From: a bacterium
Lineage (GTDB): Bacteria > Patescibacteriota > Minisyncoccia > UBA6257 > JAUSGH01
Reading direction: 5' to 3'
Length of the DNA: 64,000 nucleotides
Assembly: GCA_030649055.1 (NCBI GenBank)
Contig: JAUSGH010000001.1
Location: forward strand, 10,907 to 74,906
The notes below the pieces were generated by a model. It did no database searches. It had not been told where the DNA came from and saw nothing but the letters and a program-made list of their open reading frames with translations. Positions 2,696 to 53,524 of the stretch are shown piece by piece. Position numbers and translations under genes: made by a program. Each line of letters starts with the position of its first letter. Position 1 is the first letter of the stretch.

Positions 2696-3274
2696 ATGGC
2701 AGAGGAAACACCTATGACGCCGGAAGGCGCGGTGACACAACCGGAGGAGATGGCCATGACGCGGCCGAAGCTGGACGAGCCGCCGCGGCTCGTGAAGGTC
2801 AACGGTGAAGACCGCTCGCGCCCGGGGTGTGGACTCTACGGAGAGTGGGGCGAATACGGCCTGAAGCATGCCATTGTCTATTTTCTGGACAACTTGCTCG
2901 CCGGCAACTTCGACGAGCTCCCCGCTCCGCACATCGTCTTCGGCCCTATCACGTTGAAGCTGCGTCGGCACGTGGGATGTGATGGCGAGTACATCGCCTA
3001 CGGTGAGCCGATGAACGACGAACGGCCGGATTGGTTCGTGGGTAGGACGCGGAAGCTGAGATTTGAGGTTGAGCTTCTGTCTTCTTCTGGCGTCGACGTG
3101 CTGGAATACAACCTCCGGAAGTTCGCGCTGAATAAGAGCTGGCGGGTGCTCGCGGTGTTCTTCGGTCCTGCCCGCACGCTGCGGATCTGGAAGAAGGAAG
3201 ACGGAGGGTATGGTCTGGAGACCTACGGCCTTCCGAAGACCGAGGAAGAATGGAACTGGCATCCGCACAGTTAG
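2696..3274 (+). CDS. Hypothetical protein (GC-rich orphan)
   Basis: ATG at 2696 sits 4 nt after a GGAGG RBS. The opposite-strand ORF 2630..3295 is Arg-rich and looks like a shadow ORF. A convergent terminator hairpin follows. Confidence 0.55.
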   Translation: MAEETPMTPEGAVTQPEEMAMTRPKLDEPPRLVKVNGEDRSRPGCGLYGEWGEYGLKHAIVYFLDNLLAGNFDELPAPHIVFGPITLKLRRHVGCDGEYIAYGEPMNDERPDWFVGRTRKLRFEVELLSSSGVDVLEYNLRKFALNKSWRVLAVFFGPARTLRIWKKEDGGYGLETYGLPKTEEEWNWHPHS

Positions 3275-3305
3275 CGCCCCTGTCAGACGGGGCAAGAAAC
3301 TGAAA

Positions 3306-3336
3306 CGGGAGTGGTCGCCTCAGGCGACCACTCCCG
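3306..3336. terminator. Bidirectional intrinsic terminator hairpin
   Basis: Perfect 14-bp inverted repeat cgggagtggtcgcc-tca-ggcgaccactcccg between convergent genes. Confidence 0.7.
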
Positions 3337-3366
3337 TTACTCATTTTCGCGTAATCCCCTACGGGA

Positions 3367-3675
3367 TTATTTCTGTTTAGAAAGTATATTTTTCAACTTA
3401 TCCTTTACTTCGGTGACCGCGACACGGATGTCCCAATCTTCATGCTCGGCGCGCGCGATGTTTTTACTCGTCGCGTCCAGATTCACCTCCGCGCGATACA
3501 CCGGGCCCTTCGTGTGATGTTTTGTGGTGCGCGCGATTTCAACAATCGCAATCACGCTCGTGCCGTTGCGCTCGTGCCGTTGCACGAACTTATCAAGCGA
3601 CCCGATTTTTTCGTTGATGTACTCGATCATCGCGGGCGTGAGGTCAAGGTTGGTTGCTTTGATGTTTATTTTCAT
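3367..3675 (-). CDS. hpf: Ribosome hibernation promoting factor (RaiA/YfiA family)
   Basis: MKINIKATNLDLTPAMIEYINEKIGSLDKF...VEIARTTKHHTKGPVYRAEVNLD is typical of HPF. I placed the start at the internal ATG giving about 103 aa. Confidence 0.85.
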   Translation of the reverse strand: MKINIKATNLDLTPAMIEYINEKIGSLDKFVQRHERNGTSVIAIVEIARTTKHHTKGPVYRAEVNLDATSKNIARAEHEDWDIRVAVTEVKDKLKNILSKQK

Positions 3676-3736: not shown

Positions 3737-4717
3737 CTATACGTAAATGACTTCTTCCTCAAGAACTATACCAAATTTTTTCTTTACTTGCGACTTTACA
3801 AGTTTAATCAGCGACTTCACATCGCTTGCCGAAGCGTCCAGCACGTTCACGATAAAGTTCGGATGTTTGGGTGAAATCATCGCGCCGCCATAGCTTACGC
3901 CTTTGACGCCGCTGGCTGCAATGAGATACGCGGCAGGTACTACAGGAAACGGATCATTCTTTACTGGAATCGCCGACCCACGCAGACTAAACGCTGACTT
4001 ACGCAGAGCTTCCGCGTAGTTCCGCGTGCGTTCCGCGTAAATCTGCGTCACTGGGACATTTTTGAATATACTGCCGATGTTCGGATAATCCATCGGATGC
4101 CGCTCTTCGCGGTAGCGGATTTTTTCGGCAACTGTCCTTGCGATGACAGCCGGGTCCCCCGTCTTCATTTGCAGCGTTGCTTCCAAAATTATTTCTTCGC
4201 CGTCGTTAATTTTGAAGATGCTGTTGCGGTAGCCAAAGGCACATTCATTTGCCATGCGGTTCATGAGGCGCGGTTCTTTTTTTGCAATGTTCAAACTCGC
4301 GACTTCAAACACCGCATCTTTTGTTTCCCCGCCAAATGCGCCGGCGTTTCCTCGGATGGCGCCGCCAACGGTGCCGGGAAGCCCGCCCGCCCACTCCAAC
4401 CCGGCGAGTCCGTGGATGGCAGCGAAGTCTACAAGTTCGCGCATGAGGACACCCGCGCCGACACGGATTTTTGTTTCATCGGCGGAGATGTGCCCAACGG
4501 CGGGCTTGATGACCAAGCCATCGAATCCTCCGTCATTGATGAGCAGGTTTGTTCCCCCACCGAGGATAAAAATGTCGCGTTTTTTTCTCTTGATTTTTCT
4601 CCATTCTTTGAGCGCGGCAATAATTTCATCGGCCGATGCCGGTTCACAAAAGTACCGCGCGATGCCGCCGATTTTGTAATTACTATAGAGGCTTAATTTT
4701 ACGTCGTGACGGAACAT
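3737..4717 (-). CDS. murB: UDP-N-acetylenolpyruvoylglucosamine reductase MurB
   Basis: FAD-binding GGGTNLL motif, GLAGLEWAGGLPGTVGGAIRGNAGAFGGE and SYGGAMISPKHPNFIVN motifs. Confidence 0.9.
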   Translation of the reverse strand: MFRHDVKLSLYSNYKIGGIARYFCEPASADEIIAALKEWRKIKRKKRDIFILGGGTNLLINDGGFDGLVIKPAVGHISADETKIRVGAGVLMRELVDFAAIHGLAGLEWAGGLPGTVGGAIRGNAGAFGGETKDAVFEVASLNIAKKEPRLMNRMANECAFGYRNSIFKINDGEEIILEATLQMKTGDPAVIARTVAEKIRYREERHPMDYPNIGSIFKNVPVTQIYAERTRNYAEALRKSAFSLRGSAIPVKNDPFPVVPAAYLIAASGVKGVSYGGAMISPKHPNFIVNVLDASASDVKSLIKLVKSQVKKKFGIVLEEEVIYV

Positions 4718-26673: not shown

Positions 26674-27582
26674 TTATCTCCGTCTTCCGTGAAAACTTTT
26701 ATGAATTTCTTTCAGTTCTTTGTTGGTGAGGTGGGTATACACTTGCGTCGTTGAAACATTGCTGTGTCCGAGGAGTTCCTGCACCGAGCGGAGATCCGCG
26801 CCGTTCACGAGGAGGTCGGTGGCAAAAAGATGGCGCAAGCCATGCGGAGTGAGTCGCTTCCCGACAATGCCGGCTTTCTTGCCATAGTAATGAATAAGCC
26901 GCTGCACGGTGCGCGGAATGATGCGCCCCAACACCTTCGGCTGCTTCGCTTTGCTCATGCTGACAAACAGCGCTTCGTCGGCATCACCGCGCCCGGCGAG
27001 ATATGTGTCAACGGCTTTCCTTGCGCGGTCGGAGATAAACACTACGCGTAGCTTGTCTCCTTTGCCGCGCACGGTGATTTCACCTTGCTTGAAGTTAAGG
27101 TAGCGGCTTAATTTGCAAAGTTCCGAAACGCGCAGTCCCGTGGAGAAAAGCATTTCAAGAATTGCGCGATCGCGGAGCGCGCGGAGATCGGTGCCCGAAG
27201 GCGCGGCAAGCAGGCGTTCCAGTTCGGCATATTCAATAATTTCAATTTGCCGGTCGCCGAGCTTTGGGAGTTCTATTTTTTCGGGAGAGGGAACAACGTA
27301 ATCCTGCTTCGCGAGATATTTCAGAAAATTGCGGATAGCGATGACGTAGTAGCTTTGGGTGCTTTTCTTGAGCGGCTCGCCGGATGGGGCGCTGGTGCGG
27401 GCGAGCGCGAGGCGAAAATCCTTTATTTTATCAAGGGTGAAATTACGCAACGTCGTGACGCCGGACTGCTTGATGAAATGACGCAAATAGCGCTCGTAAT
27501 TCTCGCGCGTTTTTGGCGAGCGGTTTTTCTCAACTTCAAGGTAGTCCAGATATTCTTTTAAAAGTTTTTCAATCTCGATCAT
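26674..27582 (-). CDS. Tyrosine site-specific recombinase XerC/XerD family
   Basis: C-terminal catalytic region HGLRHLFATDLLVNGADLRSVQELLGHSNVSTTQVYTHL with R..HxxR..Y. Start set at MIEIEKLLKEYLDYL. Confidence 0.8.
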   Translation of the reverse strand: MIEIEKLLKEYLDYLEVEKNRSPKTRENYERYLRHFIKQSGVTTLRNFTLDKIKDFRLALARTSAPSGEPLKKSTQSYYVIAIRNFLKYLAKQDYVVPSPEKIELPKLGDRQIEIIEYAELERLLAAPSGTDLRALRDRAILEMLFSTGLRVSELCKLSRYLNFKQGEITVRGKGDKLRVVFISDRARKAVDTYLAGRGDADEALFVSMSKAKQPKVLGRIIPRTVQRLIHYYGKKAGIVGKRLTPHGLRHLFATDLLVNGADLRSVQELLGHSNVSTTQVYTHLTNKELKEIHKSFHGRRR

Positions 27583-27721
27583 TATCTTCAGTATACATTG
27601 TGCGACACATGGGGAACATGTATTGAGTATCGAGTATTGAGAAGTGAGTATGGGATGCATACGCTCAGCATTTGTTTGGCATACTGTCTTCTCTATACTC
27701 AATACAGCATACTTCGCAAAG

Positions 27722-27749
27722 TTGCATCTTTTTGCGTATCGCGTATAAT
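27722..27749 (+). promoter_or_regulatory. Sigma70-like promoter upstream of ftsH
   Basis: TTGCAT, 16-nt spacer, TATAAT. A second extended -10 TGTATAAT lies at 27773-27780, only 10 nt before the ATG. Confidence 0.5.
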
Positions 27750-27790
27750 TTACGGAATACCGCAAGCACGTTGTATAATGAAGTCATCGT

Positions 27791-29810: not shown

Positions 29811-30551
29811 GTGGGTCCGCATCGTCGGAGATTGCTTCGTCGCGCGGTGCGGCAGGCAAAGATTATCTCGTTTGATGCCGACGGAACACTGGTGGATTCG
29901 CGCATAACCGCGGTTCCGATCCACGCGGAGCTTGCGTCGAAGTATGGCCTCGCGACACCGGCGCCGTATGACGGGTGCTCCATTCCGGCTTGGCTTACAG
30001 CGCAAGGGCTAACGCCCCGCGCGCGCCGGCAGTACCTCAATGAGTGTCGGAAGATGGAGGAGGAGCGGCGTCCGCGGATATTCCCTGGCGTGAACGAACT
30101 CGTGCGGAAACTTAAGGACGCGGGGAAGTGCGTCGGAGTGATGACAAACCGTCCGGCGGAGGTACGGGGTTTCCGGATGTTCTGGAATTCCGGGCTCGAC
30201 CTGAACCTTTTTGATTTCTTCGCGACCTACGATCCGCATCCGCGGCGCGTTATGTGGATGAAGCGCTTGTGGCTCATGCGGAACATGCCCGATCATCACG
30301 TATCCGCTGCGTTCCCGAAGCCGGATAAGCGGGCATTTGATCCGATTTACCCGTGGATCGCGAAACTTGGTGCGAGTCCGGGTGAAGTCATCCATGTCGG
30401 CGATTCCATTCCGGATATCGTGGCGGCTCGCGAGAACTACTTCATGCCCATCGGCGTCCTCACGGGCGCGGTGCGGCACAAGAGCATCTTCTTTGAGCAC
30501 GGGGCGCAGTTTGTGCTCCCGTGTGTCACTGATGCGTTGAACGATCTCTAA
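29811..30551 (+). CDS. HAD-superfamily hydrolase (GC-rich)
   Basis: FDADGTLVDS (motif I) and GDSIPDI (motif IV). GTG start 6 nt after GGAGG. Confidence 0.65.
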   Translation: MGPHRRRLLRRAVRQAKIISFDADGTLVDSRITAVPIHAELASKYGLATPAPYDGCSIPAWLTAQGLTPRARRQYLNECRKMEEERRPRIFPGVNELVRKLKDAGKCVGVMTNRPAEVRGFRMFWNSGLDLNLFDFFATYDPHPRRVMWMKRLWLMRNMPDHHVSAAFPKPDKRAFDPIYPWIAKLGASPGEVIHVGDSIPDIVAARENYFMPIGVLTGAVRHKSIFFEHGAQFVLPCVTDALNDL

Positions 30552-30629
30552 TGGACCCGGTTTGCTTAGGCATCCGGGTCCGCTCTATTTGAAAATATGT
30601 CGGCGAAGCAGTATGATATGAATGCAAAT

Positions 30630-30771
30630 GCGCCCGTAGCTCAATGGTTAGAGCACCGAGCTTCCAATCGGCAGCGAGGATGGAGTAAAGTTGTGGCAAT
30701 GCGCCTGTAGCTCAATGGTTAGAGCACCGAGCTTCCAATCGGCAGCGAGGATGGAGTAAAGTTGTGGCGTT
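30630..30771 (+). pseudogene. Two tandem 71-bp units, each a tRNA 5' half plus a 37-nt spacer
   Basis: Unit 1 at 30630-30700 has acceptor gcgcccg, and unit 2 at 30701-30771 has acceptor gcgcctg. Both read ..gtagctcaatggttagagcaccgagctt + ccaatcggcagcgaggatggagtaaagttgtggc and lack an anticodon loop 3' side, T-arm and 3' acceptor. Confidence 0.7.
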
Positions 30772-30844
30772 GGGCGTGTAGCTCAATGGTTAGAGCACCG
30801 AGCTTATACCTCGGTGGTTCCTGGTTCGAGTCCAGGCACGCCCA
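30772..30844 (+). tRNA. tRNA-Ile (anticodon TAT)
   Basis: Acceptor gggcgtg/cacgccc, D-arm gctc-aatggtta-gagc, anticodon stem ccgag/ctcgg with loop cttatac, T-arm cctgg-ttcgagt-ccagg. No CCA encoded. Confidence 0.7.
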
Positions 30845-30890
30845 CAAATTTATTACATCCGAGCGAACCGATTGCATGCTAAAGGCATGG

Positions 30891-30927
30891 ACCTCGGTGG
30901 TTCCTGGTTCGAGTCCAGGCAGGCGCA
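30891..30927 (+). pseudogene. Orphan tRNA 3' half (anticodon-stem 3' strand, T-arm, acceptor caggcgc)
   Basis: acctcggtggttcctggttcgagtccaggcaggcgca. Its acceptor strand is complementary to the gcgcctg of 5'-half unit 2, implying a tRNA split by about 150 bp that contains the intact tRNA-Ile. A third 3'-end copy (tccaggcacgcccacaaatttta) lies at 31361-31385. Confidence 0.65.
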
Positions 30928-31639
30928 CAAATTTTATAATCAGCTTAATTGTTGATTATAAAATTTTGCGCCCGGACTCGAATGGGAAAGGGGTCGGGAA
31001 AACGGGAGTTTTCCCGTGGAGGAAGTGGACCCTATCGCAATTCTTGCTCTCGGCGCGTTGCGCTCCGCGCGCGTGAGCACAAGAAGCGACGACGAGGTTG
31101 TATGCTCTTGCATACGCCGAGGAGGAGCGACGCCGTGATTCGCGCGCGTGGTGCGCAACCCTTCGGGAAGCCGCATCTTGCCGCACATCGCAACGTTGCT
31201 CGTCGATTCATGTATCCCAGGGGATACACTTCACTCCTCGCGCCTTGCGCTGCGCCTAGCAATCTGCGGCTTCGCGCCAGAGATAAGAATTGCGATAGGG
31301 TCCGAACCGCTGGGTTTCAAAGCGCAAGCCCCGCAATGCGGGGCTGAGCAGTGAGATGTCCAGGCACGCCCACAAATTTTAAAACCAGAAGGAGGCGCGC
31401 TGTGGAAAACCCTCTTGCGCCTATGTGTCGCGATTTGTTATATATAAATGGTATGAAAAATGGTCGGCAACAGTTTACGTATGTCATGATTACGACGTCG
31501 CTTACGCGGAGGTCGCTTTCTCTTCATTCGTAACGCAGCCGATTCATACGAACGAAACAAGAAAGAGGCCTTCGCGAAACCGGAGGCCTTTTTCGTTTCG
31601 GGGCAGATTTTGTGGTTCTTTGACAATTCGGAGGTCGTC

Positions 31640-32068
31640 ATGCGTTTCACCGACGGGGATAAACATGCCGTTGCGGTGCTTCGGCAGTTTGCCCAGGACT
31701 TTTTGGAGCCGGGCGGGCTCCATGGGCCGATCTACTATCTTGGACAAGATACGCGGCTCTATGTGCTTGGCATCGTGAAAGATGCGAGCAGAGCGGGTTA
31801 CCCGGAGCGGCAGGTGCTCATATTGGGGAGCGATCCGTTGCCAAAGGAGAAATTTCCCGACATTCCCCAAGGGTGCGAGTTGCGGCTCTGCACGTTCGCG
31901 GTGTTGAAGCGCCCGCCGACTCCCGAAGAGCGCGAGGCGGACAAGCGGGAAGGGAGTGGGGGCGAGGACGGCTTCACCTACGAGCTCCTGGAGTTCAAGG
32001 GATGGAGCGACCACACGGTGTTCTTCGCCGGAACGACGATTCGTTCCCGATCCGCGGGGTTTCTTTGA
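31640..32068 (+). CDS. Hypothetical protein (142 aa, GC-rich)
   Basis: GGAGG RBS 5 nt before the ATG. The opposite-strand ORF 31544..32092 is Arg/Pro-rich and looks like a shadow ORF. Confidence 0.5.
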   Translation: MRFTDGDKHAVAVLRQFAQDFLEPGGLHGPIYYLGQDTRLYVLGIVKDASRAGYPERQVLILGSDPLPKEKFPDIPQGCELRLCTFAVLKRPPTPEEREADKREGSGGEDGFTYELLEFKGWSDHTVFFAGTTIRSRSAGFL

Positions 32069-46657: not shown

Positions 46658-47552
46658 AATGATTACACTGAAATGTTGACCTTAAAGCATAACCCCTGCG
46701 GCTCCTAGTCCTCCATAAAGAGGACAATTTCCAGAGCCGCGCACAGCGGCTTTTGTCGTTGTAAGGGGACCGGTGCTGACTGAAACGAACGGACATTGAT
46801 AAACAGGATCTGACAGAAAATTCTTTTTTGTCGGGTGCTCATAAGTAAATCAATGCAAATGAAAACGCAATTTCAAGAGTATTATCGAAAGCATTCAATG
46901 CTTCGATGATCGGTTTTACTGCTCAATATCTGCATGATGGCGGAGTATTGAGTACGCCTCGTTAAGTCGCCTCAGGCGACCGCGAGGTTGCACGCGTTGA
47001 ATTCAGAGCGTGTATAAGGGCGTATGGTGGATGCCTAGACACAAAATGGCGATGAAGGACGCAGCATAACTGCGATAAGCTTCGGGGAGGTGTGTAGCAA
47101 CCTTTGATCCGGAGATTTCCGAATGGGGAAACCCTGCGCGGTAAACCCGCGTAACGCATGCGATTAAACGCGCATGTGAGCAGACCCGCTGAAGTGAAAC
47201 ATCTCAGTAAGCGGAGGAATAAAAATAGATTAGATTCCCCAAGTAGCGGCGAGCGAAAAGGGAACAGCCTAAACTTTAGTGTGTGCAGCAATGTATACGC
47301 TGGAGGGTTGCAAGGGTAAGACATTTTTGCGTATCGCAAAGCTCTCGTTAAACAGGGCTGTGCGATTCGCGGAAGATTGGTTACAAATTGCTTCGTTAGC
47401 TGAAGCTTCTGGAAAGAAGCGCCAAAGTGAGTGATAGCCTCGTAAGCGAAAACAAAGCAACCAATTCGTTTTATTTCTTAAGTACCTCGAGACCACAACA
47501 TCTCGAGGGAATCCGCCAGTACTATCTGGTAAGGCTAAATACATTTTGTGAT

Positions 47553-47589
<37 letters not shown>

Positions 47590-49458
47590 CAGCCCGGCGA
47601 GGGCGCTGAAATAGTACCTGAAACCATATGTCTACAAGGACTAGAAGTCCAACCACTGAGCAATCAGTGGCGGACAACTAGGTGCCTATTGAAGAATGAG
47701 CCAACGACTTTACGTTTACTGCTTGTCTAAGTCGCTTCATGCGACGGAGGCATAGGGAAACCGAGTGTTAATAGCGCGTTCTCTTATTTATGACCGAGTA
47801 GCTGGTATGCTTCCAGCGTTCGGTCATAGATGAGAAGGCAGTAAGTGTAAGACCCGAAGCCAAGGCGAGCTTGCCCTGACCAGGATGAACCCGAGCGAAA
47901 GCGAGGGGGAGGTCCGAACCAGTTGATTGTGCAAAATCTTTGGATGAGTTGGGGTAAGAAGTGAAAAGCTAATCGAGCTTGGTAATAGCTGGTTCTCTCC
48001 GAAATAGTTTTAGGACTAGCGTTCCGCAAAAACCGTATGGGGGTAGAGCACTGGTTGATTCGTATTGGGGGAAACCTCGGCGCATCAGTCAAACTCCGAA
48101 TACCATACGGGACGCGGGATAGTCAGACTGTGGGGGCAAAGCTCCATGGTCGCGAGGGGAATAGCCCAGACCGTCGTCTAAGGTCCCTAAATTCTTGCTA
48201 AGTGTAAAAGGTAGTCATGCCCCAGAGACAGATAGGAGGTTGGCTTAGAGGTAGCCATCCTTTAAAGAGTGTGTAACAACTCACTATTCGATGGGTCGTG
48301 GCGCCAAAAATGTACCGGGGCTAAGCAAGATACCGACGACACGGGTGTCCATGACTTCGGTCGTGGACGCGGTAGGAGAGCATTCTGATTGCTGTGAAGG
48401 TTCATCCGTGAGGAGGACTGGAGCGTTCAGGAGTGAGAATGTTGGCATGAGTAACCATCAAATCCGATGAGAAATCGGATCCCCGAAAATCCAAGGTTTC
48501 CGTGGCAATGGCAATCAACCACGGGTTAGGCGATCCTAAGGCAATGGCGAAAACCGTAGCCGATGGGTAGCCGGTTAATATTCCGGCCCGCGCTTATTTG
48601 TGCGATGGGGTGACGGAGGAAAAAAGGTTGAGCGTCTCAATGGTTTGACGTCGCTGATGATAAGGAATGTGTTCTTGGCAAATCCGGAGCACTGTGTTTA
48701 ATCGCGAATTCCGCGCGTCGGCGTAAGGCCAAGTTTTACTTGGCTAATTCAACTGAAGAGCCTTCCAAGAAAAACCTCTAAGTTTAGGATAAGCGCATCG
48801 TACCGTAAACCGACACAGGTGGGTGAGGCGAGACGCCTCAGGGGAACGAGTGAGTCTTGGTCAAGGAACTAGGCAAAAAAGCGGCCGTACCTTCGGTATA
48901 AGGCCTGCCCGTCACGCCGCAAGGTGTGCATGGGCTGCAACAAAAGTACATTTGGCGACTGTTTATCAAAAACACAGCTTCCTGCTAACTCGTAAGAGGA
49001 TGTATAGGAGGTGACACTTGACCGATGCGAGAAGGTTAACGGTGGGTGTGTATTCGAAAGCAATTTTGGATATGCTCACTGCCCGAAGCCCTCGTCAATG
49101 TCAGCGGTAACTATAACCGTTCTAAGGTAGCGCAATTCCTTTCCGGGTAAGTTCCGGAGCGCATGAATAGTGTAACGATCGAATGACTGTCTCGACCAAG
49201 AGCTCGGTGAAATTGCGATTCCCGTGAAGACGCGGGATACCTGTAACGGGACGAAAAGACCCCGGGAGCTTTACTGTAGTTTGATATTGGCTTTAACGTT
49301 TTTCTGCGTAGCGTAGTGGCGAGGGTATGAAACCTGGTTTTCGGATCAGGTGGACCCGACAATGAAACAGCCATCTGGAAAATGTTAAAATCTAACCTTT
49401 ACGGCAAAAACGTATTGGGACAGTGTCTGATGGGCAGTTTTAATGGGGCGTTATCCTC

Positions 49459-49793
49459 AACAAAACGATTGACATCCGTTCAATCGAGGGGGTTAACGTA
49501 ATAAAAAATTCAGCTATATGCTGGGACATCCGTGCATCTTCAAGTACTCGGGCGCTTCGCGCTCAGTGAAAATCTTGAAGTGGCATCCGCCAGGTGGCGG
49601 ATCGACGGACAATCAGCAGGCAACCTCCGACGGACATCGGAGAGAGTCCTCAACGACTATACGCTGAACATCGTGATGTCACTCGCGATGAAGATATAGT
49701 CTGACCTCTGTGGCGACACAGAGAGTTGTGGTAGAAATGCCGCGCCGATCACCGGCAACTAAATTTTAGAGTTGCTGGCGATGTGTAACAAAT
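49459..49793 (+). other. ORF-less insertion of about 335 nt in 23S next to the P-loop region (candidate group I intron)
   Basis: Flanking sequence reads ...ggcgttatcctc | insertion | ctaaaaagtaacggaggag. The flanks together restore the conserved GGTCTCCTCCTAAAGAGTAACGGAGGAG. Boundaries +/- 2 nt. Confidence 0.55.
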
Positions 49794-50127
49794 GCCTAAA
49801 AAGTAACGGAGGAGTTTATTAAGGTTGGCTTAGCGCGAATGGAAACCGCGCTGGACGTGTAAACGCAAAAGCCAGCTTGACGGCAAGACCTACAAGTCGC
49901 GCCGGTGCGAAAGCAGAAGTTAGTGACCCGATGATCCGTCATAGAATGGTCAGAGACATCGGCTAAAAGTTACCCCGGGGATAACAGGCTAGTCTGGTCC
50001 GAGAGTTCCTATCGACGACCAGGCTCGGCACCTCGATGTCGGCTCGCCCTAGCGCGGAGGTGGAGAAGCTTCCAAGCGTATGGCTGTTCGCCATTTAAAA
50101 GGGCACGTGAGCTGGGTTCAAACCGTC

Positions 50128-50401
50128 AACGAAAAAGAACCTAGAGAAGACATCAACAAACGGCGGCGCTTTGCCGTAAGGCAAAGCTGAGAAGTTGACT
50201 CATATCGGTGAAGTCCTACAAAATCTTTAACCTGGGTTTTGAGGATAACCCCGAGGGAAGGTCCGATGAACGTCGGACCCCCGTAGAGACTTGATCGTAA
50301 GGGATCGGAATCCGGTTTTATAATCGGGTTAATACGTCAACCCTCCGATGAATATCGGAGTGATGGTATAGTCCAAACAATTAGTAATAATTGAGTATTG
50401 C
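50128..50401 (+). other. ORF-less insertion of about 274 nt in 23S at the I-CreI-type homing site (candidate group I intron)
   Basis: Flanks aaccgtc | insertion | gtgagacaggttagtc restore the conserved AACGTCGTGAGACAGTTCGG. Boundaries +/- 2 nt. Confidence 0.55.
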
Positions 50402-50826
50402 GTGAGACAGGTTAGTCTCTACCTGTTACAGGCGTGTGATGCTTGAGGGCAGTCGACCCTAGTACGAGAGGACCGGGTTGAACGAACCTCTGGTCTACCA
50501 GCTTTAGTACCAACTGAATCGCTGGGTAGCTAAGTTCGGAAGGGATAAGCGCTGAAAGCATATAAGCGCGAAGCCTAGCCCAAGATAAGGCATCTTTCCG
50601 CAAGGAAGCAGTCCGTAGAAGATTACTACGTTGATAGGTCGCAGGTGTAAGATCAGTAATGATTTCAGCCGAGCGATACTAATAGACTGTCACACGCTCT
50701 GAATTGAGCGCATGAAAGTAGCGTTCTCTGTAGAAATATAGAGGGCGCCAGTAAAACCGATCATCAAAGCATTGAACCCCCGCCTTTCGGCGGGGGGAAA
50801 GGGTTAGAAAAAACAACCTTTTTGTT

Positions 50827-52447: not shown

Positions 52448-53524
52448 ATGCTTTCATATTTCAAGCGTCTTGATTGGGGCGTCACCGTTCCTGTGCTGGT
52501 GATGACCGCGGTGAGTTTGACTATGGTCGCGAGTATTGCTCCGCGGCTTTTTCCGATGCAGCTTGCGTGGTTCGGGATTGGCATTGCTGTGGCGGTATTG
52601 CTTGGCGTGAGCGACATACGTTCGCTCACCAATCATCGCGCCGTTGTCTACGGTTTATATATGTTGGCAATCGGGCTGCTGCTCGCCACGGCGCTTTTCG
52701 CGCCCACGATCCGCGGGTCGCGGAGCTGGTTAAGCTTCGGCCACGCGCAGTTTCAGGCATCCGAATTCGCGAAAGTGGCGCTTATTGTTCTTTTTTCATA
52801 TTTTTTTGCGAAGGGACACGCGCGCATCGCGCACGGCTCAACCATCCTTGTTTCATTTTTGTATCTTGCCTTGCCTGCGGCATTTGTCATGAAGCAACCG
52901 GACTTGGGATCGGCGCTGATCATGGGCGGTGTGTGGATCGGATATCTGTTTGCTTCAGGTATCAAGCCACGGCACGTGGGGTTGGGGCTTATTGTTGCCG
53001 TCGTCGGATTCATCATCGCGTGGAACGGATTTTTGAAACCATATCAGAAAGAACGCATTGTTGGACTTTTTGTGCCCGATCGCGACCCGCTGGGGGTAAA
53101 TTACAACGTTATTCAGGCAAAAATTGCCATCGGGTCCGGCGGATTTTTTGGCAAAGGATTTCGGCAGGGAACGCAGGTACAGCTGGGGTTTTTGCCGGAG
53201 GCGCAGACGGATTTTATTTTAGCCGCGCTTATTGAGGAGTGGGGACTAGTCGGGGCAATTATTCTGTTCGGCGCGTTTTTGTCGCTCATGCTCCGCATTA
53301 TTTGGATTGCGTTGGAATCGCCGAATAATTTTTCACGCCTCTTGTGTCTTGGGGCGATCATTTTATACCTTTTGCATTTTGTGGTGAATGTCGGTTCAAA
53401 TGTGGGACTGTTGCCCGTCATCGGAGTTTCGTTCCCATTTTTGAGCTATGGCGGCTCTAACCTGCTTGCAAATTTTATGCTTATCGGCATTATTCAAAGC
53501 ATCGCGGCGCGGAAGTCATTCTAA
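52448..53524 (+). CDS. SEDS-family peptidoglycan glycosyltransferase (RodA/FtsW)
   Basis: Ten-TM layout with conserved segments FQASEFAKVALIVLFSYF, GSGGFFGKGF, GFLPEAQTDFI and SYGGSNLLANF. Confidence 0.85.
   Translation: MLSYFKRLDWGVTVPVLVMTAVSLTMVASIAPRLFPMQLAWFGIGIAVAVLLGVSDIRSLTNHRAVVYGLYMLAIGLLLATALFAPTIRGSRSWLSFGHAQFQASEFAKVALIVLFSYFFAKGHARIAHGSTILVSFLYLALPAAFVMKQPDLGSALIMGGVWIGYLFASGIKPRHVGLGLIVAVVGFIIAWNGFLKPYQKERIVGLFVPDRDPLGVNYNVIQAKIAIGSGGFFGKGFRQGTQVQLGFLPEAQTDFILAALIEEWGLVGAIILFGAFLSLMLRIIWIALESPNNFSRLLCLGAIILYLLHFVVNVGSNVGLLPVIGVSFPFLSYGGSNLLANFMLIGIIQSIAARKSF

Follow-up and report, generated by a model that had tools for sequence, protein, structure and literature searches.

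Disrupted tRNA genes, whether split, permuted or interrupted by several introns, are to our knowledge regarded as a speciality of Archaea and organelles, and the bacterial cases known to us are introns of groups I and II and integrase scars. For the candidate phyla radiation (CPR), RNA biology is largely uncharted. Disrupted tRNA genes of Archaea include those with bulge-helix-bulge (BHB) introns at non-canonical positions and the split and tri-split tRNAs of Nanoarchaeum and Caldivirga (PMC4390854, PMC4033280, PMC4090602). Patescibacteria tRNA genes were reported to carry group I introns at position 35/36 (Nakagawa et al., 2026, PMC13011429), and partial tRNA genes as scars of integrative elements are discussed in PMC9897764. 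Here we describe a tRNA-Ile(UAU) locus in a 64,000-nt stretch of bacterial DNA (contig JAUSGH010000001.1, positions 10,907 to 74,906; referred to as the window), in which a resident tRNA gene appears to be split in its anticodon loop by a segment carrying a complete tRNA of the same kind. It is followed by a conserved and apparently structured element, termed X. A search of the open-access full-text literature brought up no account of bacterial tRNA genes nested in this way, nor of X or the D-loop insert presented below; on nested or split tRNAs in Patescibacteria, the paper on group I introns was the only relevant one to emerge.

The tRNA-Ile(UAU) locus and its resident gene

Coordinates are window positions throughout; L-numbers denote comparison loci, and all comparison sequences are metagenome assemblies. 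The tRNA-derived part of the locus consists of the following features, where "cassette" denotes the insert:

30589-30617, + strand: sigma-70-like promoter TTGAAA-17-TATGAT for the whole locus, the sole promoter-like site in 30450-31750
30630-30663, + strand: unit 1, 5' part of the resident tRNA-Ile (positions 1-34), acceptor strand gcgcccg
30664-30700, + strand: 37-nt non-tRNA arm, copy 1, part of a 71-bp tandem duplication
30701-30734, + strand: unit 2, 5' part of the resident tRNA-Ile (positions 1-34), acceptor strand gcgcctg
30735-30771, + strand: 5' arm of the cassette, 37 nt, with CAATCGG complementary to CCGATTG in the 3' arm
30772-30844, + strand: intact tRNA-Ile(UAU), the inner gene, acceptor gggcgtg/cacgccc (ARAGORN; Rfam RF00005)
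30845-30890, + strand: 3' arm of the cassette, 46 nt, with the hairpin catgc-taaag-gcatg
30891-30927, + strand: 3' part of the resident tRNA-Ile (positions 37-73), acceptor strand caggcgc (repeat finder)
31359-31379, + strand: direct copy of the inner tRNA 3' end, 21 nt exact, TCCAGGCACGCCCACAAATTT

The tandem 5' halves reported in a preliminary description of this DNA are evident in the sequence and were recovered with a repeat finder, which places two 71-nt copies with one mismatch at 30627-30697 and 30698-30768. In the register used in that description (30630-30700 and 30701-30771) the two 71-bp units differ at three positions. Each unit consists of tRNA positions 1-34 followed by 37 nt of non-tRNA sequence, and the D-arm and the 5' strand of the anticodon stem are identical in both units and the intact tRNA gene. 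The intact gene had been proposed before and was called as tRNA-Ile(tat) by ARAGORN; it scores 75.7 bits with RF00005, the gathering threshold being 29. The orphan 3' half equals this tRNA from position 37 on, bar two acceptor positions, and is complementary to unit 2, as had been claimed. Positions 35-36 are missing from the outer pieces. About 156 bp lie between unit 2 and the 3' half and include the complete tRNA, in agreement with the idea that one tRNA is split by another.

A recurrence of the tRNA 3' end further downstream, also described before, was confirmed, with its start moved two bases to the left: the exact 21-nt match lies at 31359-31379. It comprises the 3' strand of the T-stem, the 3' strand of the acceptor stem, the discriminator and 7 nt of trailer. 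The two copies of this direct repeat (30831-30851 and 31359-31379) are separated by 507 bp, and the distal one forms the 3' terminus of X and adjoins the native downstream flank GCTGTGGAAAAC, as in simple loci. Repeats like those of the locus arose in none of 100 shuffles, and no partial copies exist of the three remaining tRNAs of the window. No homolog of either cassette arm was found among the comparison loci searched. The 37-nt arm was also considered as a decayed tRNA 3' half and rejected, since its identity beyond 'tcgg' is about 25%, as judged by eye.

Such a layout might in principle stem from a collapsed or chimeric metagenome assembly of strain variants. All data are metagenomic, the Logan assembly is broken between 30801 and 31274, and a Logan contig from the same run (L001, SRR13727527) contains a single 71-bp unit. 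However, this contig independently confirms the junctions from the promoter over the 5' fragment and the 37 nt to the intact tRNA. The sequence across the junction of units 1 and 2, like that across either cassette junction, is unique and has to occur in the reads, and analogous layouts are present in independent assemblies from other samples and phyla (L003, L004, L005, L033, L045 and L044). An assembly artefact is consequently highly improbable. The single unit in L001 can be the result of a k-mer collapse, so that the layout is not in doubt and the number of tandem units is less sure; the unique k-mers at the unit junction argue for at least two. The differences between the acceptor stems are compensatory, which upholds the earlier conclusion that the copies are diverged alleles and not assembly noise.

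The HAD-hydrolase gene flanking the locus has its nearest relatives in metagenome-assembled genomes (MAGs) of Candidatus Harrisonbacteria, showing that the host is a Harrisonbacteria-like CPR/Patescibacteria bacterium. The gene order Xer-like recombinase, FtsH, HAD, tRNA-Ile(UAU), small open reading frame (ORF), glutamate dehydrogenase (GDH) is conserved. A search for empty sites in relatives yielded simple single-tRNA loci: in seven contigs (L006, L007, L008, L009, L010, L011 and L043) a single undisturbed tRNA-Ile(UAU) follows a TTGAAA-17-TATxAT promoter. No relative was found in a HAD-based search of genome contigs, and a metagenome scan added two simple loci only. Directly after the HAD stop codon the window contains a hairpin, GGACCCGGTTTGCTTAGGCATCCGGGTCC (30552-30582), which is 97-100% conserved in L003, L004, L006, L007 and L009, the HAD gene itself being far more diverged.

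Comparison with these loci points to the identity of the outer pieces. The acceptor gcgcctg/caggcgc of unit 2 and the orphan 3' part is that of the single tRNA-Ile in L006, L009 and L010. Unit 1 lies at the native distance from the promoter, and the same promoter motif with the same spacing is located upstream of the single tRNA-Ile in simple loci, for example L010 and L005. From the acceptor match and the promoter distance we take the outer pieces to be the resident tRNA-Ile(UAU) gene without positions 35-36, orthologous to the single gene of the relatives, and not a tRNA-Pro(UGG). The preliminary description had derived a cttggac loop with a UGG anticodon, a reading that does not stand: the join on which it was based uses two bases of arm sequence. 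Unit 2, an added AT and the orphan 3' part together are called as tRNA-Ile(UAU) by ARAGORN. As they stand, the outer halves give no Rfam tRNA match at E<=10 and are called as a tRNA only after this artificial 2-nt insertion; a contiguous or spliceable tRNA with a 7-nt anticodon loop, as expected of a functional gene, is not formed. Inner and outer copies in the window differ solely by two flipped acceptor base pairs (2-71 and 5-68) and share an identical body, which is unlike the bodies found in other lineages.

The anatomy of the locus is well supported: the resident tRNA-Ile(UAU) is split in its anticodon loop after position 34, with loss of positions 35-36, by a 156-bp cassette that consists of the 37-nt arm, a complete tRNA-Ile(UAU) with an acceptor stem of its own and the 46-nt arm, and X is a separate, conserved element. 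Our explanation as a whole, which extends to the origin and working of this anatomy, we consider slightly more probable than its opposite. In it the insertion would have occurred at the DNA level. Such an insertion would be self-compensating and could be tolerated since the cassette brings a working copy of the gene that it destroys. The 71-bp tandem duplication would have copied the native leader, the 5' wreck and the arm; because it includes 3 nt of native leader as well as the arm, it should post-date the insertion. A transcript starting from the promoter at 30589-30617 would begin with a 148-nt leader that holds the two 5' wrecks; the inner tRNA would come next, followed by the 3' arm, then the 3' wreck and finally X. 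From this precursor, RNase P together with 3' processing would free the inner tRNA, and the outer pieces would be by-products. The mature inner form would be GGGCGUG...CACGCCCA-CCA; a joined outer counterpart would read GCGCCUG...CAGGCGCA. The inner gene is the sole intact tRNA of the transcription unit and presumably functional. In the predicted fold of the primary transcript the inner cloverleaf is intact and outer parts pair with outer parts (z = -5.3); the two flipped acceptor pairs would disfavour mispairing between inner and outer copies.

Several observations weigh against this model. We identified no enzyme or mechanism for the insertion of the cassette, and complementarity between the two arms of the window is weak (7-11 nt), in contrast to L005 and L033. 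The near identity of inner and outer copies needs gene conversion or a very recent origin, and their difference by flipped pairs could mean selection on pairing within the outer copy. Furthermore, the terminal copy of X is of the inner type (B, cacgccc), the tRNA part abutting X is of the outer type (A, caggcgc), and the inverted copy at the X 5' end resembles a third type, cgggcgc, which matches unit 1. With copy types mixed in this way the order of events is not recoverable, and at least one extra step of recombination or gene conversion is needed. The metagenomic origin of all comparison sequences counts on the same side.

Nested and broken tRNA genes in related genomes

Comparable arrangements were found in other CPR genomes. 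In two Harrisonbacteria MAGs (L003 and L005) an outer tRNA-Ile(UAU) with the acceptor gggtgtg/cacgccc has its break precisely at the 35/36 boundary. Here 123 bp are inserted: a complete tRNA-Ile(UAU), acceptor gcgcgtg/cacgcgc, preceded by a 27-nt arm and followed by one of 24 nt. The two arms form inverted repeats (CCCGCCCGCCTTGAC... / ...GTCAAGGCG..GGGCGGG), and the outer gene also contains a D-loop insert of about 53 nt with two hairpins. The same D-loop insert is present in a tRNA-Val(GAC)-like outer gene of a Saccharibacteria MAG (L033). This gene is interrupted behind position 35, where a complete tRNA-Val(GAC) is flanked by inverted 12-nt arms that match perfectly; positions 36-40 are missing from the outer copy, and its T-loop is mutated. 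Loci L045 and L044 show the order promoter, 5' fragment with a 51-nt D-loop hairpin bounded by CCCGCCCG...CGGGCGGG repeats, 14 nt, intact tRNA-Ile(UAU). In L012 the intact gene is directly followed by a 5'-truncated copy bearing the D-loop insert, and the tRNA-Ile site holds extra DNA, about 900 bp long, that includes an orphan ORF.

Arm sequences are not shared from one lineage to the next, and no homologs of them were found elsewhere, indicating independent events. The 5' break lies at position 34 or 35 in three nested cases, and both break points of the window, like those of the independent nested cases, fall within 3 nt of the anticodon loop. Judged from these positions, two chance deletions meeting within 3 nt three times would be far less likely than insertion into the anticodon loop. 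The earlier notion of a rearrangement hot spot is in line with these data: five of about ten related lineages have a different arrangement, and a segment bounded by the direct repeats is present in L005 and absent from the near-identical L003. Small insertions into tRNA genes look recurrent in the CPR group. The outer copies appear to be dead or dispensable, since positions 35-36 are missing in the window and 36-40 in L033, and the acceptor of L003 contains mismatches.

L003 and L005 share 98% identity over Xer-FtsH, 73% over HAD and the outermost tRNA parts, and 100% downstream. This pattern is due either to recombination import, with ends at FtsH/HAD and inside the tRNA locus, or to chimeric assembly. 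The L003 outer gene combines the 5' strand gggccag with the 3' strand cacgccc, resulting in two acceptor mismatches, and its interior is identical to L005, which suggests that a recombination tract ending in the locus was tolerated. The tRNA-Ile alleles are mosaics in which three acceptor types are combined with shared bodies. Both the tract end inside the locus and the mosaic alleles would be expected if transformation with DNA of a diverged strain, anchored on the tRNA, had stacked pieces of tRNA-Ile alleles by homology-facilitated illegitimate recombination or gene conversion and with no mobile element involved. Yet three independent nested cases break at 34-36, two of them with long inverted arms around the inner tRNA, and the CCCGCCCG...CGGGCGGG repeat common to the L045 D-loop hairpin and the L005 insert points to discrete elements with site preference. 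Recombination without a mobile element is thus a rather doubtful source of the nested layout.

The nested genes could also be read as functional at the RNA level: the outer tRNA would be an intron-containing or split tRNA with the inner tRNA as its 'intron'. Once RNase P and RNase Z had freed the inner tRNA, the arms would keep the outer halves together, to be ligated or to act as a two-piece tRNA. Consistent with this, the predicted transcript fold is a cloverleaf within a cloverleaf (z = -5.3), the acceptor stems of inner and outer copies differ by compensated pairs, and L005 without both inserts is a perfect tRNA-Ile(UAU). The inserts of L005 and L033 lie at 35/36, the site reported for self-splicing group I introns of Patescibacteria (PMC13011429). 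Against such a function, the outer tRNA of the window is without two anticodon nucleotides, so that any join gives a non-Ile anticodon or a 5-nt loop; the outer copy of L033 is without 36-40, that of L003 has a mismatched acceptor, and the 5' piece in the window is tandemly duplicated. A group I core was not detected with RF00028 (E<=10 in 30400-31700; E<=5 in L005 3900-4370), and the same model does detect the 23S intron of the window and the L031 intron. BHB geometry (two 3-nt bulges, 4-bp helix) was not seen in the sequences and the fold; the breaks are bordered by an internal loop beside a long continuous helix (L005, L033) or by a three-way junction (window). In addition, no bacterial splicing endonuclease is known. 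Joining at the RNA level is unlikely, if less clearly so for L005 with exons that would rebuild a perfect tRNA, and we regard a function of the outer genes as intron-containing or split tRNAs as very improbable.

The D-loop insert was found in further tRNA-like sequences. It is about 55 nt long and forms two hairpins (CCCCGAC..loop..GGAAGTCGGGG and AGCCGAC..loop..GTCGGCT); four CCGAC/GUCGG motifs permit two alternative folds. Its position, after AGCTCAG, is constant in sequences resembling tRNA-Ile, Val, Phe, Gly and, with a question mark, His, from two CPR classes. The sites are L003 6988-7040, L005 3948-4000 and L012 1071-1123 and, in Saccharibacteria, L031 ~3926-3985, L032 ~3241-3297, L033 ~6050-5989 (- strand) and L038 ~5134-5103 (- strand). 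The insert is always located in a defective or truncated copy, usually beside an intact one. It has no Rfam match; an 18-mer taken from it gave 24 chance matches and 4 real matches in Saccharibacteria, and in viral contigs chance matches in coding sequence only. The CCCGCCCG...CGGGCGGG inverted repeat bounds the L045 hairpin at 1332-1382 (51 nt, in the D-loop, no target duplication), and the same repeat bounds the 123-bp tRNA-bearing inserts at L005 4032-4154 and L003 7061-7183. This shared terminal repeat suggests that stem-closed inserts carrying a tRNA and those lacking one belong to a single family of insertion elements.

As to the agent of insertion, the best lead would be nuclease-triggered repair at tRNA genes, since genes for GIY-YIG and HNH proteins are located at analogous loci of other CPR genomes. 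In L032 an 88-aa GIY-YIG protein (3318-3584, + strand; Pfam 1e-15) is encoded between a tRNA-Phe 5' fragment bearing the D-loop insert and an intact tRNA-Phe, and 23 nt of upstream-plus-5' tRNA sequence are directly repeated on both sides of the gene. In L031 the tRNA before X has a group I intron in its anticodon loop, and this intron encodes an HNH protein (4098-4412, + strand). More tentatively, and with well under even confidence, CPR genomes may harbour a family of small stem-closed elements that insert without target duplication and home to the tRNA D-loop at 16/17 and 19/20 and to the anticodon at 35/36. One class would bring a replacement tRNA and thus be a self-complementing parasite, perhaps mobilised by homing-type nucleases of the GIY-YIG/HNH kind or by an RNA intermediate. 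X would then be a new, widely conserved CPR RNA with termini that copy the 3' end of the neighbouring tRNA.

Element X and the downstream region

X spans about 30929-31379 and is composed of a palindrome, a conserved core, an optional 277-nt domain and the terminal copy of the tRNA 3' end listed above. Its other parts are:

30908-30982, no strand assigned: long palindrome, the resident tRNA from the T-loop to the 3' end plus trailer, then an inverted copy
30967-31026, + strand: 5' module of X, with the tRNA-3'-end complement, GGGAAAGGGGTC, the hairpin GGGAAAACGGGAGTTTTCCC, and GTGGAGGAAGT
31027-31303, + strand: variable domain of X, 277 nt, closed by a perfect 19-bp stem
31304-31358, + strand: 3' module of X, with the hairpin GAACC-GCTG-GGTTT, the covarying hairpin AGCCCCGC-AAT-GCGGGGCT, then GAGCAGTGAGATG

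The right arm of the palindrome is the 5' end of X, and the same architecture follows the tRNA in L005, L006 and L031. The 5' module is conserved in L005, L006, L011 and L031 with the pattern TCGAAYGGGAAAGGGGTC, hairpin, GTGGMGGA; its covariance model finds one copy per comparison locus and none further in about 160 kb of comparison sequence. In L006 and L007 X is located after tRNA-Leu(UAG), with an inverted and a direct copy of the tRNA-Leu 3' end. In L005 it follows the outer tRNA-Ile and its terminal copy ends in CCA, as in L011, where X is located at the contig start and ends ...CGAGGGCACCA. A partial X follows an intron-bearing tRNA in Saccharibacteria (L031), and L003 is without X between the repeats. 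X is thus found beside tRNA-Ile in certain genomes and, in close relatives of these, beside tRNA-Leu, its termini each time matching the local tRNA, which suggests relocation with or via tRNA sequence.

The 277-nt domain occupies the same internal position of X in L006 (89% identity), is replaced by a small hairpin in L011 and is absent from L005. Between window and L006 this identity compares with 87.5% for FtsH DNA, 81-86% for GDH and 71% for HAD. The 30 differences in the domain are concentrated in unpaired columns, with 19 among 80 such columns as against 11 among the 198 paired ones. All 99 predicted pairs are kept: eight one-sided changes keep pairing via G·U, and two pairs are changed on both sides. 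In every homolog the + strand of X folds better than the - strand. Rfam searches at permissive thresholds (window locus, L005 locus, L006 X) gave no match beyond chance matches of the hairpin type, such as miRNA and Plastid-ycf2 antisense to the tRNA. From this pattern X is most likely a structured RNA of the + strand, an assignment made with low confidence. Its termini may mimic a tRNA acceptor/T minihelix, for processing by tRNA enzymes or as a homology or attachment site beside different tRNA genes; confidence in this is likewise low.

The preliminary description had taken the two 21-bp repeats as an attL/attR pair enclosing the decayed remnant of an element, and the locus as the signature of repeated integration and excision by a tyrosine integrase. 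A perfect direct repeat of a tRNA 3' end with its distal copy adjoining the native flank is indeed what such a process leaves. Further support comes from the segment between the repeats in L005 that is missing from the otherwise 98-100% identical L003, from the many lineages with different scars at the same tRNA, and from the roughly 900 bp with an orphan ORF in L012. On the other hand, neither an integrase nor cargo was found in the 507 bp between the repeats, and 30845-31358 contains only spurious ORFs over structured RNA. The Xer-like gene at 26674-27765 lies 3 kb upstream and outside the borders and is syntenic also where the tRNA is undisturbed. BLASTN of 30929-31385 against phages and plasmids gave no match, and patterns of the X core were not found in viral contigs. 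The interior is under purifying selection of the RNA type and is conserved across CPR classes, and we read it as a conserved structured element in place of a decayed one. Finally, what integration by an integrase yields is hybrid tRNAs and 3' fragments; neither 5' fragments nor a whole tRNA nested in another, with a compensated acceptor stem of its own, are among its products. Scars of a tyrosine integrase are therefore an unlikely explanation, and the attL/attR interpretation was given up in favour of a cassette insertion next to a separate X.

Two known element types were considered for parts of X and rejected. The domain at 31027-31303 has the perfect 19-bp terminal inverted repeats of a miniature inverted-repeat transposable element (MITE), but it is present in a single copy in the window, has no target-site duplication, keeps a conserved position in X and shows pair-preserving changes. 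A match with three mismatches to the 19-nt closing stem at 53119-53137 (- strand) is probably due to chance. A transfer-messenger RNA (tmRNA) or permuted tmRNA made up of the orphan 3' half, the hairpin and X scored 7.6 bits with beta_tmRNA against a threshold of 84. ARAGORN called no tmRNA, and reading of the sequence revealed no G3·U70 (position 70 is C) and no conserved tag frame. The likeness of GGACTCGAA to the tmRNA D-analog arises because TTCGAA is a palindrome.

Between the tRNA locus and the small ORF a further conserved non-coding element of about 200 nt was observed (31398-31600). Its parts are a promoter-like site (TTGCGC-17-TATATA), the stretch GGTATGAAAAATGGTCGGCAACAGTTTACG...ATTACGAC... 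and, as terminator, GGCCTTCGCGAAACCGGAGGCCTTTTTCG; it is 85-92% conserved in L006, L008, L009, L011, L012 and L005. It belongs to no Rfam family and has weak leader-type matches only; it may be a small RNA or the 5' leader of the 142-aa ORF, for which no Pfam match was found. The L012 homolog is split at ~2068-2181, where some 115 nt are inserted; this insert has terminal inverted repeats of 13 nt (CCCCGTTAGAAGT / ACTTCTAACGGGG), and TTTAC is apparently duplicated. It looks like a classical MITE, in contrast to the duplication-free inserts in tRNA loops. Elsewhere in the window, the 23S rRNA gene (47004-50703) is 3.7 kb long and contains a group I intron at 49461-49723 (75.1 bits). Such 23S introns are typical of CPR bacteria, the usual length of the gene being about 2.9 kb.

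Comparison with described systems

A complete tRNA nested in an anticodon loop, independently in two CPR classes, would add a new mode of tRNA-gene invasion and repair. Annotation pipelines will wrongly call or miss tRNAs where genes are arranged like this, and a tRNA half can be taken for an att site. X is a candidate for a new non-coding RNA, with conservation like that of FtsH, RNA-type covariation and no match to a known family.

The locus shares with att scars of integrases the partial copies beside an intact gene, the direct repeat of the tRNA 3' end at both insert borders (30831 and 31359) and the fact that the cell keeps its tRNA. It differs in being without integrase or cargo, in the compensating copy being a complete tRNA in the anticodon loop, in the 5' fragments and in the structured, RNA-like segment between the repeats. 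The disrupted tRNA genes of Archaea likewise have separated halves, D-loop and anticodon-loop inserts without target duplication and complementary flanks. The genes presented here are bacterial and without BHB motifs, three of the four cases have defective outer exons, an entire tRNA takes the place of the 'intron' and no sign of splicing was seen.

With the group I introns of Patescibacteria our cases have in common the phylum and the insertion site, which is the same in L005 and L033 and 1-2 nt off in the window; the inserts are 123-156 nt long, do not contain a catalytic core and consist mostly of tRNA. RNAs with tRNA-like ends, such as tmRNA, permuted two-piece tmRNA and mascRNA, resemble X, which has an acceptor-like strand and GGACTCGAA at its start and, at its end, a T-stem strand followed by an acceptor strand and A(CCA). 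A weak beta_tmRNA alignment was obtained with the layout T-arm-acceptor-hairpin-acceptor 5' strand. Unlike tmRNA, X is without G3·U70, tag frame and 3' T-arm, and its short forms (~135 nt) are too small.

Rickettsia palindromic elements are small palindromic insertions in RNA and protein genes. As in these, stem-closed insertions of 50-280 nt are found at precise sites in structured RNA genes. No sequence relationship between the two groups is known, and the insertions described here are located in the tRNA loops of redundant copies, with one class carrying a tRNA of its own.

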